Positions 12,454-17,831 of a stretch of 38,014 nt of DNA are shown here, one piece after another. A model generated the notes under the pieces. It saw nothing but the letters and a program-made list of their open reading frames with translations. It ran no database searches and was not told the DNA's origin. Made by a program: the position numbers and the translations under genes. Within the stretch, counting starts at the first letter, position 1, and the number at the start of each line of letters is the position of its first letter. This DNA is from a virus: UHGV virus genome UHGV-0042156, one strand, 5' to 3'.

Positions 12454-14334
12454 ATGAGGCCAAGTGAACTCAGCGACCTGCTTTGGGCGCAGGTTGACAG
12501 GGTGGCTCCGCACCTGTTGCCAAACGGCAAGAAAGATGGGCATGAGTGGGTTGCCGGTAACGTCAACGGTGACAAGGGAAACAGCCTTAAGGTCAATCTT
12601 AGCGGCAAGAAAAAATGGGCTGATTTCGCTGAGGGGGACGGCGGTGACATGCTTGATTTGTGGATGGCATGTCGTGGAATTAACCTGCATCAGGCTATGC
12701 AGGAAGCGAAAGCATTTCTCGGTATCAAGGATGACGATCACCATTTCGATGCCAAACGTGAGAAGAAATTCTCCAGACCTGATCGCAAGAAAATCGCCCG
12801 CTACGTTACCAGAACAGAATCCCATCTTGAGTACCTGCAATCGCGTGGCATATCGCCAGAAGTCGTAAAGCGCTACGAGGTTGTCAGCGGCAAGGTGTGG
12901 AATGGAGAGCGGGAACTGGATGCTCTGGTGATTCCGTACAAACGCGATGGTGAGTTGTTGCAGGTAAAGCGAATCAGCACTGAGCGCCCGGACGGGAAGA
13001 AAGTTATTATGGCAGAAGGTGATTGCGAACCTTGTCTGTTCGGATGGCAGGCTCTGGACGCTGGCGTGAGGGCGGTTGTGCTTTGCGAAGGCGAAATTGA
13101 TTGTATGAGCTATGCGCAATACGGCATCTCGGCGTTATCCGTGCCGTTTGGTGGCGGGAAAGGCGCTAAGCAACAGTGGATTGAGTTTGAGTATCACAAC
13201 CTCGACAGGTTTGAGGAAATATTCATCTCGATGGACGTTGATGATGTTGGTCGTGAAGCCGCAAGGGAAATTGCAAGCCGACTTGGTGAACATCGTTGCC
13301 GTCTTGTTACTCTGCCGTACAAAGACATCAACGAATGCCTGATGAACGGTGTTACCGAGGATGAAATCTGGCAGTACATCGGCACGGCATCCTACTTCGA
13401 TCCTGAAGAACTCTACAGCGCGCGAGAGTTTTACCAGGACACTATCAACGCTTTCTACGGCAAGCAGCAGTATCTGTTTAATCCACCGTGGGAATCTCTG
13501 GCAGATAAATTCCAGTTCCGTGAGGCAGAGTTGACGCTGGTCAATGGTGTGAACGGTCACGGAAAAACGGAGGTTGTCGGGCATATGGCACTTGAGGCAA
13601 TGCGTCATGGTGTGAAGACGTGCATCGCGTCACTTGAGCTGAAGCCTGGTATTCTCCTTAAGCGCCTTACCCGTCAGGCGACGTGCTGCAAGATGCCGCC
13701 AGTGCTGGAAATTGACTCTGCATTTAAATTTTATGACGAAAGACTTTGGGTGTTTGGTCTGACCGGAACGGCGAAAGCCGACAGGCTGATCGAAATATTC
13801 GACTACGCTCGCCGCCGATACGGGATCCAGTTATTCATCATCGACAGCCTGATGAAATGTGGCATAGGCGACGATGACTATAACGGGCAGAAGGCGTTTG
13901 TTGACTCGATTTGCGACTTCAAAAACAAAACAAACTCCCACGTCATTCTCGTTACTCACTCGCGAAAAGGAGACAGCGAAGAAAAACCAACCGGGAAAAT
14001 GGACGTAAAAGGCTCTGGAGCGATAACAGACCTGACAGACAACCTTTTCATCATCTGGCGTAACAAGGCTCGCGAGAGAGCGTTACAGAGAGTTCAGAGT
14101 GGTGAAAAGATGTCAGAGAAGGACGAACAGCTACTGGCATCTCCGGCATCTGTTTTGATGCTTGAAAAACAACGTAACGGCGAAGGTTGGGAAGGTGGCG
14201 TCCCTTTGTTCCTTGACGAGCAATCGCACCAGTTCCTGCAACTTGAATCAGGATCGCCTTATAGCTACATCGCCAATATGCCGAAATCGGAATATGACGA
14301 GGCGTGGCGACAGGAAAACGTGACGGAGTATTAA
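12454..14334 (+). CDS. Bifunctional primase-helicase (Toprim primase plus DnaB/RecA-like ATPase)
   Basis: 626-aa ORF; Toprim-like acidic cluster (VVLCEGEIDCMS, DVDDVGRE); Walker A GVNGHGKT and Walker B-like LFIIDSL; GAGGGA SD; occupies the lambda P slot. Confidence 0.8.
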   Translation: MRPSELSDLLWAQVDRVAPHLLPNGKKDGHEWVAGNVNGDKGNSLKVNLSGKKKWADFAEGDGGDMLDLWMACRGINLHQAMQEAKAFLGIKDDDHHFDAKREKKFSRPDRKKIARYVTRTESHLEYLQSRGISPEVVKRYEVVSGKVWNGERELDALVIPYKRDGELLQVKRISTERPDGKKVIMAEGDCEPCLFGWQALDAGVRAVVLCEGEIDCMSYAQYGISALSVPFGGGKGAKQQWIEFEYHNLDRFEEIFISMDVDDVGREAAREIASRLGEHRCRLVTLPYKDINECLMNGVTEDEIWQYIGTASYFDPEELYSAREFYQDTINAFYGKQQYLFNPPWESLADKFQFREAELTLVNGVNGHGKTEVVGHMALEAMRHGVKTCIASLELKPGILLKRLTRQATCCKMPPVLEIDSAFKFYDERLWVFGLTGTAKADRLIEIFDYARRRYGIQLFIIDSLMKCGIGDDDYNGQKAFVDSICDFKNKTNSHVILVTHSRKGDSEEKPTGKMDVKGSGAITDLTDNLFIIWRNKARERALQRVQSGEKMSEKDEQLLASPASVLMLEKQRNGEGWEGGVPLFLDEQSHQFLQLESGSPYSYIANMPKSEYDEAWRQENVTEY

Positions 14335-14363
14335 ATGACCATCTACATCACTGAGCTAATAAC

Positions 14364-14395
14364 AGGCCTGCTGGTAATCGCAGGCCTTTTTATTT
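14364..14395 (+). terminator. Rho-independent terminator (tR2-like) before nin region
   Basis: AGGCCTGC-TGGTAATC-GCAGGCCT followed by TTTTTATTT. Confidence 0.65.
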
Positions 14396-14411
14396 GGGGG
14401 AGAGGGAAGTC

Positions 14412-14828
14412 ATGAAAAAGCTAACCTTTGAAATTCGATCTCCAGCACATCAGCAAAACGCTATTCACGCAGTACAGCAAATCCTTCCAGACCCAACCAA
14501 GCCAATCGTAGTAACCATTCAGGAGCGCAACCGCAGCATTCGGCAAAATGCACGCCTTCACGCGATGCTATCTGAAATAAGTAAGAAGGCTACATATCAT
14601 GGAAAAGTAAGAAATATTGAGTTTTGGAAGGGGTTATTCGTTTCTGGTTGGCAGATTGCAACCAACCAGCACCCTGAGATTATATCAGGGTTAGAAGGTG
14701 AGCTAATAAACATCAGAGAGAGTACGGCGACTCTATCTGTAAAAAAAATATCCGAAATAATGGACTACATAGAAGCATATTGTGCCATGAACTCAATTCA
14801 TCTTAGCGAATGGAGGAATTATGATTGA
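14412..14828 (+). CDS. ninB: NinB recombination protein (3' part divergent)
   Basis: MKKLTFEIRSPAHQQNAIHAVQQILPDPTKPIVVTIQERNRS matches lambda NinB as recalled, then continues in AT-rich divergent sequence to a new C-terminus. Confidence 0.85.
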   Translation: MKKLTFEIRSPAHQQNAIHAVQQILPDPTKPIVVTIQERNRSIRQNARLHAMLSEISKKATYHGKVRNIEFWKGLFVSGWQIATNQHPEIISGLEGELINIRESTATLSVKKISEIMDYIEAYCAMNSIHLSEWRNYD

Positions 14829-15394
14829 GGTTTGGGTAGATATCGAAGGGATTCCATTTTATCAGGTTAGCAATAAAGGAAATTTCAGGTCTATTACGAG
14901 GGAAGTTACAGTAACATCAACCAGACAGAGGCCATATAAGAAAATAATTAATGGCACTAGCGTAAAACCATTCAAGTGCAAGTCGACAGGATATCTTCAA
15001 ATAAAGGTATACGGTAAGAAATACAGCGCCCACAGGATAGTTGCGAAAGCATTCTGTACAGGGTTCTGTGATGGCTTGGTAGTTAATCACAAAAATGGGC
15101 AAAGAGATGACAATAGGGCTGAAAACCTTGAATGGGTATCACATTCTGAAAACTCAAAGCACGGATATAAACAAAATGGAAGAATACCTATATCGCTAGG
15201 TAAATTTAGTGGTGATCATCCTGCCAGTAAAGCTGTTATTTCTACTGACATGAAAACTGGTGAGGAGGTTTATTATGAAGCAGCTATGGATGCTGTCAGA
15301 GAAGGATTTGATAGTTCGTCAATTAGTCGTTGCTGTAATGGCGAAAGCTCATATCACAAAGGAAGATTCTGGCGATTTGCAAATGAAACAATGA
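14530..15394 (+). mobile_element. Putative HNH cassette: divergent ninB 3' segment plus HNH gene
   Basis: AT-rich block beginning where ninB diverges from lambda and ending where lambda-like ninB tail codons (KARWGDRAA) resume, now fused to the HNH ORF. Confidence 0.4.
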
Positions 15395-15423
15395 AAGCGA
15401 GATGGGGAGATCGGGCTGCATGA
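14821..15423 (+). CDS. HNH endonuclease (NUMOD4 plus HNH), C-terminally fused to ninB tail codons
   Basis: GIPFYQVSNKGNFRS (NUMOD4-like), VNHKNGQRDDNRAENLEWVSHSEN (HNH); ends ...[10 protein letters not shown]. Confidence 0.8.
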   Translation: MIEVWVDIEGIPFYQVSNKGNFRSITREVTVTSTRQRPYKKIINGTSVKPFKCKSTGYLQIKVYGKKYSAHRIVAKAFCTGFCDGLVVNHKNGQRDDNRAENLEWVSHSENSKHGYKQNGRIPISLGKFSGDHPASKAVISTDMKTGEEVYYEAAMDAVREGFDSSSISRCCNGESSYHKGRFWRFANETMKARWGDRAA

Positions 15424-15947
15424 CTATCAAATCAAATACACCAGCACACGACAAGGACTGCTGGAGAACGCCGCTTTGGCTTTTTGATGCACTGGATATT
15501 GAGTTTGGATTCTGGCTGGATTCGGCAGCGAGCGACAAAAATGCTCTGTGCGCTCACTGGCTAACTGAGGCCGACGACGCACTCAATTCTGAGTGGATAA
15601 GCCGCGGTGCAATCTGGAATAACCCACCGTACAGCAATATCAGGCCGTGGGTGGAAAAAGCCGCTGAGCAGTGCATACAACAGCGCCAGACGGTAGTGAT
15701 GCTTGTGCCAGAGGATATGTCTGTCGGATGGTTCAGCAAGGCTCTGGAGAGTGTTGACGAAGTTCGCATCATCACTGATGGACGGATTAATTTTATCGAA
15801 CCATCGACAGGGCTGGAGAAGAAGGGAAACAGCAAAGGTTCCATGCTGCTGATTTGGCGACCGTTCATCAGTCCTCGACGGATGTTTACTACCGTATCCA
15901 AAGCGGCATTGATGGCGATCGGGCAGGGCGTCAGGAGGGCTGCATGA
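15420..15947 (+). CDS. Phage DNA N6-adenine methyltransferase
   Basis: NPPY motif (WNNPPYSN); 175 aa; start overlaps HNH stop (ATGA), the junction used by ninC in lambda. Confidence 0.8.
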
Positions 15948-16120: not shown

Positions 16121-16533
16121 CAATGGATTATTCACAGTTAAGTGATTTTGAAATTAACAGACGAGTATGTGAGGCTTTAGATATGGAGGAGCATTTCTTC
16201 ATACCTGATGACGAAGCAGACTTCGATTCTGAGATCCCCACTGACGAAAGAGGTCCTATTTGGCAGACGCAAAAAAGGGATATTAATGGCTTCCGTTCTT
16301 CAAACGGAAATTGCTTCAATCCTTGCAATAATCCTGAATATGCGTGGCCAATTATCACTGAAAACAAAATCAGCATAATGTTTGATAGTACCGATACGAG
16401 ATATGAAGGCGAATATCACGAGTGGTGTGATGCGATTTCATCTTGTCAAAAGTTCGGAATTCAGTATCAGTCTAATCCACTCCGCGCCGCCATGATTGTC
16501 TTTCTCATGATGCAGGACGCCAATAATGCTTAG
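16117..16533 (+). CDS. Nin-region hypothetical protein (NinX-like position)
   Basis: 138-aa ORF, start overlaps ninE stop; acidic N-terminal half. Confidence 0.6.
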
Positions 16534-16702
16534 CCCATCCCAATCCCTTCAATACCAGAAAGAAAGCGTCGAGCGGGCTTTAACGTGCGCTAACTGCGGT
16601 CAGAAGCTGCATGTGCTGGAAGTTCACGTGTGCTCAGATTGCTGCGCAGAACTGATGAGCGATCCGAATAGCTCAATGTACGAGGAAGAAGACGATGAAT
16701 GA
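16526..16702 (+). CDS. ninF: NinF
   Basis: Manual translation [58 protein letters not shown], near-identical to lambda NinF as recalled; below ORF-track size cutoff. Confidence 0.7.
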   Translation: MLSPSQSLQYQKESVERALTCANCGQKLHVLEVHVCSDCCAELMSDPNSSMYEEEDDE

Positions 16703-17204
16703 TGTTAAAGAAAAAGATATCCCCGGCTTTGAGGGTATATATAAAGTAAATGAAAATGGAGACATCATTTCATGCCGTAAATCAAAAAAATTATCTCATG
16801 GCATTAAACCAGGAGGATATGCATTTGTCGGTCTGTATCCAGGTGGCGGGAAAAGACCATCATATAAAATGGTTCACAGAATTGTTGCAGAAGTATTTAT
16901 TGATAACCCAGATGGCAAACCGGAAGTTAATCACAAGGATGGAAATAAACTTAATAATAAAGTTGAAAATCTTGAGTGGGTAACGCGAACAGAAAATGCG
17001 AAACATGGATTTGATTCCGGATTGCTTGTTCATGGGTTTAATCATCACTTCTGCAAACTAACGCCAGAACAAGTGAAATCAATATATAAATCAAAAGGCA
17101 AATACAGAGATATAGCCAAAGAATTTGGTGTTTGTGCGCAGACAGTGTGCAACATAAAAAACAAATCAGCGTACCGACGTTTTTTGGAGGGGATTGATGT
17201 TTAG
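16695..17204 (+). CDS. HNH endonuclease (NUMOD4 plus HNH plus C-terminal HTH)
   Basis: IPGFEGIYKVNENGDIIS, VNHKDGNKLNNKVENLEWVTRTEN, DIAKEFGVCAQTVCNIKN; overlaps ninF stop and next gene start; AT-rich. Confidence 0.8.
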   Translation: MNDVKEKDIPGFEGIYKVNENGDIISCRKSKKLSHGIKPGGYAFVGLYPGGGKRPSYKMVHRIVAEVFIDNPDGKPEVNHKDGNKLNNKVENLEWVTRTENAKHGFDSGLLVHGFNHHFCKLTPEQVKSIYKSKGKYRDIAKEFGVCAQTVCNIKNKSAYRRFLEGIDV

Positions 17205-17472
17205 AAGCAAAAAATGGCTTCAGGCAGTCAGGGATATTGAATTTTGCGTTCTTTGCGGAAGATACGGAGTTCAGGCCGCTCACAGAAATGAAGGGAAGGG
17301 GGTTGGGATTAAAGTAGATGATTGCCTTACTGCTGCGCTATGTGTTGATTGTCATTCAAGAATTGATAATGGGAGAGATATGAGCAGGGAAGAGCGAAGG
17401 GCTGAAATGGATCGGGCCATTGTGCTTACCCTTAAAAAATTGGTTAACAATGGGAGGGTGTTTGTCCAATGA
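17197..17472 (+). CDS. Cys-rich nin-region protein (DUF1364-like)
   Basis: CVLCGRYG...CVDCHSRID Cys4 pattern; precedes rusA. Confidence 0.6.
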   Translation: MFRSKKWLQAVRDIEFCVLCGRYGVQAAHRNEGKGVGIKVDDCLTAALCVDCHSRIDNGRDMSREERRAEMDRAIVLTLKKLVNNGRVFVQ

Positions 17473-17831
17473 ACGAATATCAGTTTGTGCTTCCATACCC
17501 GCCGTCGCTGAATACCTACTGGCGAAGACGGGGGAGTCAATACTACATCAGCGATAAAGGCCAGAAATACCGAAAAGACGTTCAGCAAATCATCCGCCAA
17601 CTTAAGTTAGACATTTTCACCAAATCACGACTCCGCATCAAAGTCATCGCAGACGTTCCAGACTCCCGCCGCCGCGACCTCGACAACATCCTGAAAGGTT
17701 TACTCGACTCCCTTATCCACGCCGGATTTGCGGAAGACGACGAGCAATTCGATGACATTCGCGTAATTCGTGGCGTGAAAGTACCAGGCGGAAGGCTTGG
17801 AATAAAAATCACCGAACTGGAGAGCGTATGA
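17469..17831 (+). CDS. rusA: RusA Holliday-junction resolvase
   Basis: 120-aa ORF MNEYQFVLPYPPSLNTYWRRRG...DLDNILKGLLDSL. Confidence 0.85.
   Translation: MNEYQFVLPYPPSLNTYWRRRGSQYYISDKGQKYRKDVQQIIRQLKLDIFTKSRLRIKVIADVPDSRRRDLDNILKGLLDSLIHAGFAEDDEQFDDIRVIRGVKVPGGRLGIKITELESV

Follow-up and report, generated by a model that had tools for sequence, protein, structure and literature searches.

A candidate homing cassette, composed of a foreign ninB 3' part and an HNH endonuclease gene, in the nin region of lambdoid phages

The 38,014-nucleotide (nt) viral genome UHGV-0042156, which we call the window in the sense of that whole stretch, contains the nin region of a lambdoid (P22-like) phage. In this region the 3' part of ninB is replaced by foreign sequence (ninB'), a gene for an HNH endonuclease follows directly, and the end of an ordinary ninB reappears at the end of the HNH gene. 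We analyzed this ninB-HNH unit as a candidate mobile cassette. The features of the locus are as follows.

12454-14334, plus strand: primase/helicase gene, a single open reading frame (ORF) for 626 amino acids (aa), Toprim and DnaB-like
14334-14537, plus strand: left homology arm, lambda-type, covering the tR2-like terminator and ninB codons 1-42
14364-14395, plus strand: tR2-like intrinsic terminator, hairpin AGGCCTGC...GCAGGCCT with a T-run, annotated at the same place in phage 434
14412-14828, plus strand: hybrid ninB (orf), 138 aa; Pfam NinB, E=1.6e-40
14538-15392, plus strand: foreign cassette of 855 nt, made of the 3' part of ninB' and the HNH gene minus its last nine codons
14812-14816, plus strand: Shine-Dalgarno sequence GGAGG for the HNH gene, read from the sequence, within the last ninB' codons
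14821-15423, plus strand: HNH endonuclease gene, 200 aa; NUMOD4, HNH_3 and I-HmuI_NUMOD-like
15393-15423, plus strand: remnant of the resident ninB 3' end, a proposed right homology arm that encodes HNH residues 192-200 in frame
15420-15947, plus strand: gene for a Dam-family N6-adenine methyltransferase (Pfam Dam, E=8e-65), outside the cassette, which sets the right-hand context

Breakpoints were determined against lambda and the cassette-free phages Louie and 434, in which an ordinary ninB is joined directly to the same dam gene. A sequence-only reading of the window had placed a switch from lambda-like to divergent ninB sequence after about 40 codons and had proposed an alignment to lambda to define its ends. 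Alignment to these references fixed the left breakpoint at 14537/14538, the end of ninB codon 42, and the right breakpoint at 15392/15393; the switch was confirmed, at exactly 42 codons, and the start given for it earlier (14529) was 9 nt too early. From upstream of tR2 up to 14537, and not past it, the window is 98-98.5% identical to lambda, Louie and 434, and identity to Louie is back at 15393 and continues into dam (97.7%). Between these points lambda-type ninB loses 284 nt, replaced by the 855 nt of foreign sequence, and the AT-richness remarked on earlier is borne out by a GC content of 0.34-0.43 over 14550-15400 versus 0.45-0.56 in the flanks. Louie and 434 thus supply the HNH-less relatives that the earlier reading had called for, with ordinary ninB in near-isogenic flanks, and cassette-plus (window) and cassette-minus (Louie, 434) alleles exist at one locus with flanks 97-98.5% identical. 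The left junction sits in the most conserved NinB motif (..VTIQERNRS..). At the right junction there is no homology, only one shared G, and ninB' has no homology to lambda-type ninB 3' halves.

Nine codons and a stop at 15394-15423 correspond to lambda NinB K138-A146 followed by its stop. That the HNH protein ends with these last nine lambda NinB residues (KARWGDRAA) had been recognized before; over 15393-15423 the match is 31/31 nt to the Louie ninB tail and 29/31 to lambda (local BLAST E=2e-9). Compared with NinB C-termini, the window tail scored z=6-8, which was reached by 0 of 60-100 shuffles. The remnant carries a Shine-Dalgarno-like GGGGAG and an ATGA stop/start overlap for the next gene. 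The earlier reading put the end of the HNH gene at the usual ninC junction; in the window it is the Dam-family methyltransferase gene, not ninC, that starts at the ATGA overlap, and ninC follows the same cassette in phage APC_JM3.2. The dam gene stands directly after a cassette-free ninB in 61 phage records. Single-nucleotide polymorphisms in the tails of other cassette carriers track the downstream gene and equal the cassette-free ninB tails of the same context, as expected for a flank derived from the recipient. An exact search for a cassette-free ninB-ninE junction with the tail of L098 (L and P numbers denote loci and proteins) found none; a degenerate pattern for cassette-free ninB-ninE junctions retrieved 39 loci, and at some of them the tail is the same as in cassette carriers. 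The HNH of SEN22 and of the Enterobacter phage ends in ..ERM-AA, unlike the window-type end.

Ordinary lambdoid mosaicism would account for part of this pattern. Under this explanation, ninB' and the HNH gene were joined once by illegitimate recombination and have since been shuffled passively, the HNH being a passenger that is inactive on ninB or aimed elsewhere. A homeologous crossover is plausible at a left junction placed in so conserved a motif, and the right end uses an 11-mer linker, GGGCTGCATGA, which lies at the HNH stop/dam start (15413-15423) and again where the dam gene closes and ninE starts (15937-15947), with 2 copies versus 0.03 expected. Every nin gene around the cassette is mosaic, and the lack of homology would force the linkage of ninB' and HNH under any mechanism. 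We judge this explanation unlikely, and the observations it leaves unexplained are named below with the data on relatives. From its boundaries, dam itself looks like an insert between copies of a duplicated gene-boundary linker; cassette-free ninB-ninE junctions have GGGCGGCATGAG where the window has GGGCTGCATGA.

The HNH gene forms an ORF of its own, outside any intron or intein, and has separate translation signals (GGAGG 5 nt ahead of the ATG at 14821). As read earlier, the new ninB stop is at 14828 (TGA, 14826-14828) and the HNH start lies 8 nt ahead of its end (overlap ATGATTGA); the junction ...GGAGGAATTATGAnTGA is kept in SEN22, L007 and L098. Pfam searches with the 200-aa protein gave NUMOD4 (1.5e-13), HNH_3 (8.2e-12) and I-HmuI_NUMOD-like (8e-4), which correspond to a NUMOD4 sheet at the N-terminus, the HNH_3 catalytic core and a NUMOD-like helix-turn-helix at the C-terminus. 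In a phmmer search of the PDB the sole significant match was 1U3E (I-HmuI; E=4e-14 over aa 55-186), and Foldseek with an AlphaFold2 (AF2) model returned 1U3E only (E=1e-12, 194 aligned columns, 29% identity). The mean pLDDT (predicted local distance difference test) of the model was 93.4, and the last 10 aa, at 61, were its only low-confidence part. The conserved domain ends ..HKGRFWRF, which puts the native end at about ...HKGRFWRF(ANETM). H90, N98, N102 and N111 are invariant in 58 relatives, and the catalytic motif, which aligns with the ..VVDHKDGNKDNN..NLRWV.. region of I-HmuI, is intact. By sequence and predicted fold, then, the protein is a full-length I-HmuI-type homing endonuclease. 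I-HmuI is a nicking enzyme encoded in a group I intron of a DNA polymerase gene. The enzyme of Bacillus phage SPO1 (PDB 1U3E) shares all three modules with the window HNH, including the C-terminal helix-turn-helix ending ...HKGxxF/WRY/F; unlike it, the window HNH is free-standing at the ninB 3' end, has Asn for Asp74 and bears a 9-residue appendage derived from the gene in which it is lodged.

A search seeded with the HNH retrieved 278 relatives, and loci were inspected for ~43 distinct proteins. The gene directly upstream was of the NinB family in ~30 cases and DUF1367 in 4; the rest had no assignment or were cut off. The idea that the HNH is tied to the NinB' clade alone, which came from sampling by NinB' similarity, was dropped when the HNH-seeded search placed many NinB subfamilies upstream. 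After ..HKGxxWRF many relatives carry NinB C-termini, as in P0125 (..SDASRLEIEWATRWGKS) and P0212 (..GTEHGVKWADEAKAA), and further NinB-type extensions were seen in P0181 (..AFGTQRGVEWSPTSLGRAA) and P0208 (..CDAHGVQLTETIKGGFHDPRARAA). Scoring of tails against 177 NinB C-termini, with shuffled controls, identified NinB C-terminal-like ends, of at least 4 NinB types, in at least 16 HNH protein clusters (z>5, equalled by 0/60 shuffles). One case is confirmed in the DNA, at L276, where the final 67 nt of the HNH gene and those of a Mesorhizobium-phage ninB share 89.6% identity. L198 and L278 have a complete upstream NinB together with a diverged duplicate of its C-terminal segment on the HNH. The long tail of L013 had no similarity to NinB C-termini (z=-0.2), and short tails (..ERMAA and similar) are too short to inform on NinB origin. 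The window tail thus exemplifies an event that has recurred. Judged from these sequences, the event is the displacement of most of a resident ninB by an incoming ninB 3' part plus HNH, with the extreme 3' end of the resident gene left, in every instance in frame. Passive shuffling leaves unexplained that right junctions fall repeatedly in the last ~10-30 codons of the resident ninB, a pattern spanning several bacterial classes and at least 4 NinB types.

Comparison of the DUF1367 and NinB profiles was not significant (Prob 0.5%), and the four DUF1367 contexts therefore stay exceptions. The sole aligned stretch paired RN..FHR with QN..LHA (the NinB channel motif). E. coli YbcN proved not to be a DUF1367 protein and gives a weak NinB match only. 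In Enterobacter phage vB_Ecl_MII_001 (L004, 1792-2833), an HNH with 68% aa identity directly follows DUF1367 in the same part of the nin region, and close HNH relatives in L306, L314 and L318 likewise stand directly after DUF1367 instead of ninB.

We then surveyed GenBank phages and 5426 complete E. coli genomes for the cassette. The ninB' part was present in 65 GenBank phage records, with the HNH in the same set; carriers are mostly Shiga toxin (Stx) 2a- and Stx1a-converting phages, along with P27, phage 86, APC_JM3.2 and Salmonella phage SEN22, and their genera include Traversvirus and Lederbergvirus. E. coli contained 80 cassette sites in 77 genomes, a count that did not change when the search used just the ninB part, at low stringency, instead of the entire cassette. 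The arrangement that the sequence-only reading regarded as contrary to its proposal, the same divergent ninB with no HNH gene, was absent from the 65 phage records and from the 80 E. coli sites. The flanking ninB sequence differs between alleles with and without the homing endonuclease gene (HEG) and is inherited with the HNH throughout both sets. By comparison, a lambda-type ninB 3' half was found in 1307 of the E. coli genomes, with identity down to 90%.

The window cassette is 100% identical to that of an E. coli MS 115-1 prophage and to an IMG/VR contig, and across carriers the 855-nt core shows 1-12 mismatches (0.1-1.4%; at least 98.6% identity) despite different backgrounds. The downstream gene encodes Dam, NinC (APC_JM3.2), NinE (other contigs), another methyltransferase or, in SEN22, NinD, and ninB itself begins with a 5' part of lambda type, of Stx type or, in L098 (82/126 mismatches), of an unrelated type. 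Passive shuffling does not explain why cassette diversity stays at or below 1.4% versus up to 10% for lambda-type ninB 3' sequences. Replication modules differ among carriers as well, which shows the extent to which the cassette crosses between backbones: the single-ORF 626-aa Toprim/DnaB-like module of the window also occurs in SEN22 and APC_JM3.2, and Stx phages with the same cassette have lambda O/P and ren in place of the primase/helicase type found at 12454-14334. Some E. coli HNH copies (P0114-P0116, 190-191 aa) shift into the +1 frame of window 15260-15394 and end ..KEDSGDLQMKQ; these frameshifted genes, beside an intact ninB', are probably inactive. In L087/L304 the HNH is broken by a ~1.2-kb insert, and in L097 and L099 it is ninB' that is frameshifted.

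Codons 1-42 of the hybrid ninB are lambda-type (~98%); the remainder, codons 43-138, belongs to a separate NinB lineage, whose motif is FWKGLFVSGWQIAT...PEIxxGLEGExINIRESTA. Residues R41, Q45, N46 and H50 and the W of ..SEW.. are present in the hybrid protein; roles of the channel residues (R41, Q45, N46, W/H50) and of the C-terminal-helix Trp have been described (PMC4118853). The profile match and these conserved channel residues fit the gene to the NinB/Orf recombination mediator family PF05772. A protein search with NinB' aa 43-138 gave 110 matches and revealed a large NinB subfamily. Insertion of the HNH gene between W and K of ..EWK.., truncating NinB', was ruled out: the short ...SEWRNYD C-terminus is native to the NinB' lineage, and HNH-less relatives end alike (P0021 ..SAASWERDQ, P0020 ..AAEWEDYSF).

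Older copies of the arrangement show how long the two genes have been paired. SEN22 has the same left boundary, with 80% nucleotide identity in ninB' and 74% in the HNH gene. Between it and the window, the synonymous rate (dS) is 0.2 in codons 1-42 and saturated (>2.6) directly after; ninB' has a ratio of nonsynonymous to synonymous rates (dN/dS) of ~0.03, and the HNH gene a dN of 0.14 with dS saturated. By these estimates both ninB' and HNH are under strong purifying selection. In one NinB' clade of ~12 lineages, which extends to ~54% identity and has sources in Salmonella, Yersinia, Pantoea, Mixta and metagenomes, every member has an HNH starting ~8 nt before the ninB' stop. Deeper paired lineages include SEN22, L007, L008, L011, L013, L153 and L154, and HNH dN tracks NinB' dN across lineages. 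In L153 and L154 (2501-2941) the usual ninB' stop is lost, giving 8 more codons (..GRGMERGRY) and a 32-nt overlap with the HNH start position unchanged. These results revise the suggestion, made from the window sequence, that the locus bears the pattern of co-conversion: all the comparative evidence collected fits it, but the divergent half is an old NinB lineage and not a one-off replacement. Passive shuffling leaves unexplained that an I-HmuI-type enzyme with intact DNA-binding modules was kept for so long at dN/dS well below 1.

Pairing of this kind could also reflect a functional partnership, in which a domesticated HNH and its cognate NinB' would form a two-gene nick-and-load module that initiates recombination, mediator loading following upon a site- or structure-specific nick. 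Such a module would be the split equivalent of the NinB(Orf)-HNH (DUF968) fusions of Gram-positive phages, which combine a NinB-like DNA-binding module with an HNH nuclease and for which collaboration of NinB and HNH has been put forward (PMC2034487, PMC4118853). This agrees with the strict adjacency and co-divergence of the two genes, with the strong purifying selection that both experience, and with an HNH start that overlaps ninB' by 8 nt behind a Shine-Dalgarno sequence of its own, as well as with the NinB-family gene that precedes most HNH family members. The fusions, however, are single polypeptides with a small zinc-finger HNH, whereas the window has two ORFs in different frames with NUMOD4/HNH_3 and the three-domain architecture of sequence-specific homing enzymes, and its HNH gave no DUF968 match in the Pfam search. 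An unrelated HNH/AP2-like type can occupy the slot, close HNH relatives follow DUF1367 or unassigned genes, the HNH decays beside an intact ninB' in some prophages, and NinBs of the same subfamily exist without an HNH. A partnership also gives no reason for the resident-ninB tails left 3' of the HNH, and we regard it as quite improbable.

The slot behind ninB' shows turnover of its own. L009, L010 and L102, nested in or next to the NinB' clade, have a different HNH type of 152-183 aa (L009 2910-3458; L010/L100 2910-3461; L102 2913-3371) that combines HNH_3 with a C-terminal region read from its sequence as AP2-like, with no Pfam match; phmmer detected no similarity of this type to the window HNH. 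The ends of L009 (..AIDWARRFGETKRAA, z=1.6) and L010 (..AIEWASRFGDKQRAAA, z=3.8) resemble the lambda NinB C-terminus, a likeness no more than suggestive of a NinB origin. In L015, L087 and the frameshifted P0114-6, the HNH has decayed with ninB' intact. Slot replacement and broken HNH genes beside an intact ninB' amount to turnover as expected of selfish nucleases, and replacement of the first HNH type by a second in the same slot is a further point that passive shuffling leaves unexplained. More distant NinBs, some with the same core motif, have no HNH gene.

Taken together, we consider it reasonably probable that the HNH enzyme acts as a homing endonuclease of the free-standing type, with ninB as its target and an immune ninB allele co-converted alongside. 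The proposal includes four inferences: activity of the enzyme, a target within naive ninB, immunity of ninB', and a spread that the nuclease drives rather than passive exchange. The mobile unit would be the 3' two-thirds of a foreign ninB, which would escape cutting and preserve NinB function, plus the translationally coupled I-HmuI-type HNH gene. Should a lambdoid genome with an ordinary ninB encounter a phage or prophage that carries the cassette, the HNH enzyme would nick or cut the last ~30 codons of that ninB, and repair of the break would use the cassette-bearing copy as template. Because the two ninB alleles align only in codons 1-42, the whole divergent 3' part would be co-converted with the endonuclease gene, and the left junction motif (..IQERNRS..) would mark the limit of pairing between donor and recipient. 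Shared sequence on the right is confined to the last 31 nt of ninB, which would survive 3' of the HNH gene, fused in frame, and right junctions within the last 10-30 resident codons in independent lineages would be the outcome of one-sided break repair there. The retained tail would then provide right-hand homology to any ordinary ninB, whatever gene follows, and with HNH translation ending at the old ATGA overlap the next nin gene would keep its ribosome site and its coupling. We propose more tentatively, and with less than even confidence, that a whole I-HmuI-like lineage may be specialised on ninB across Proteobacteria, as a two-part cassette whose in-frame remnant would be renewed from each recipient as homology arm and coupler.

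Several observations weigh against the homing proposal. The metal-binding Asp74 of I-HmuI is Asn89 in the window HNH and throughout its family; being family-wide, the change is probably tolerated and not inactivating. There are no precise-loss alleles, and long co-divergence with purifying selection fits a domesticated or cooperating nuclease too; equally, an old NinB half that co-diverged with the HNH fits modular inheritance or partnership. Strict linkage would be expected anyway, since ninB' and the 3' half of lambda-type ninB share no homology, and selection alone, acting to keep the HNH ORF and downstream coupling, could bias which illegitimate right junctions survive. HNH-less NinBs of the same broad subfamily occur outside the HNH-linked clade (P0021/L155, L104, L109-L112), and close HNH relatives also stand after DUF1367 genes, with no demonstrable NinB link. 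Finally, among E. coli prophages the cassette is much the rarer allele, at 80 sites versus ~1490 lambda-type ninB 3' sites.

A nuclease directed at ninB might also serve as a weapon. In one reported case (PMC11620839), an endonuclease from a phage intron acts in interference competition between co-infecting phages, and the window enzyme could mainly harm co- or superinfecting lambdoid phages with an ordinary ninB, cassette transfer being a by-product. Its location in prophages (80 E. coli sites) would permit action on incoming relatives. In the data a weapon and homing look alike, as a single kind of cut would serve either. As ninB is non-essential in lambda, a rival would be harmed only through the break itself, and we hold a role mainly in competition to be highly improbable.

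Free-standing homing endonucleases are familiar from T4-like phages, SegF and SegG among them. For SegB and MobE, which are of the same kind, two papers (PMC2330249, PMC2790892) describe free-standing, intronless homing or localized marker exclusion with co-conversion. Like the T4 Seg and Mob genes, the window HNH is a separate ORF abutting conserved genes, exists as HEG-plus and HEG-minus alleles, and has adjacent sequence carried along. The T4 systems are experimentally proven and belong to virulent phages, whereas homing by window-type cassettes is a proposal, and their carriers are temperate lambdoid and Stx phages and prophages. They also differ in that the block proposed to be co-converted is a diverged gene segment with fixed ends where homology stops, and in that the HEG ORF continues in frame through what is left of the target gene, a feature of which we found no description in the literature searched. 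Exchange regions bounded by HEGs, in which nuclease genes border recombined segments and different HEG types share a slot, have been reported (Barth et al. 2023, PMC10448857). That study covers ICP1, T4-like and other lytic phages and the T5orf172/IPA-HNH families, and the words 'lambda' and 'temperate' are absent from its text. The HNH of the HK97 gp74 type is likewise found in a lambdoid phage (PMC10448857), but adjoins terminase/cos and assists terminase, unlike the window HNH between ninB and dam in the nin region. Database labels for the two genes are routinely 'NinB' and 'HNH endonuclease'. The ninB-HNH cassette, its strict linkage and the capture of the ninB tail were not found described in the literature, which is weak evidence since most subscription journals lay outside the search. 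Free-standing phage endonucleases with co-conversion are well known; the specialisation on ninB and the tail capture appear to be undescribed.

We note that the window contains a second free-standing HNH gene at 16695-17204 on the plus strand (169 aa; HNH_3 6e-11, NUMOD4 1e-5; likewise AT-rich, GC 0.30-0.41), between a ninF-like ORF (16526-16702) and a 92-aa ORF, with ~35% identity to the HNH at 14821-15423. It is found at the same place in cassette-free Louie, and 434 has no match past the ninF-like ORF (ninF leads to ninG). This second gene thus resembles a mobile endonuclease independent of the first. The 92-aa Cys-rich ORF (17194-17472, plus strand) lies directly before RusA (17469-17831), is labelled 'HNH endonuclease' in Louie, and gave sub-threshold matches to DUF968 (E=1e-3), the family that includes the NinB-HNH fusion proteins, and to the YbcO nuclease (E=1.6e-3).

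Lambdoid phages are textbook mosaic genomes, and the causes of particular joints are mostly obscure. The joint described here has ends defined to the base pair, a candidate enzyme, cassette-free partners and a tractable lambda orf/ninB gene, and a role of homing in temperate mosaicism is therefore testable by lambda crosses. If the wider proposal of a lineage specialised on ninB is true, conversion by the nuclease would drive the formation of mosaic joints in lambdoid and Shiga-toxin phages to a measurable degree, and fused ninB remnants would be a datable record of past invasions. The repeated capture of target tails in frame offers a simple sequence signature that could serve to find other endonuclease-target pairs in databases. 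Among Stx2a and Stx1a phages of enterohaemorrhagic E. coli, including O157:H7, the cassette is common, and so it is a marker of, and possibly a motor for, Shiga-toxin prophage exchange.

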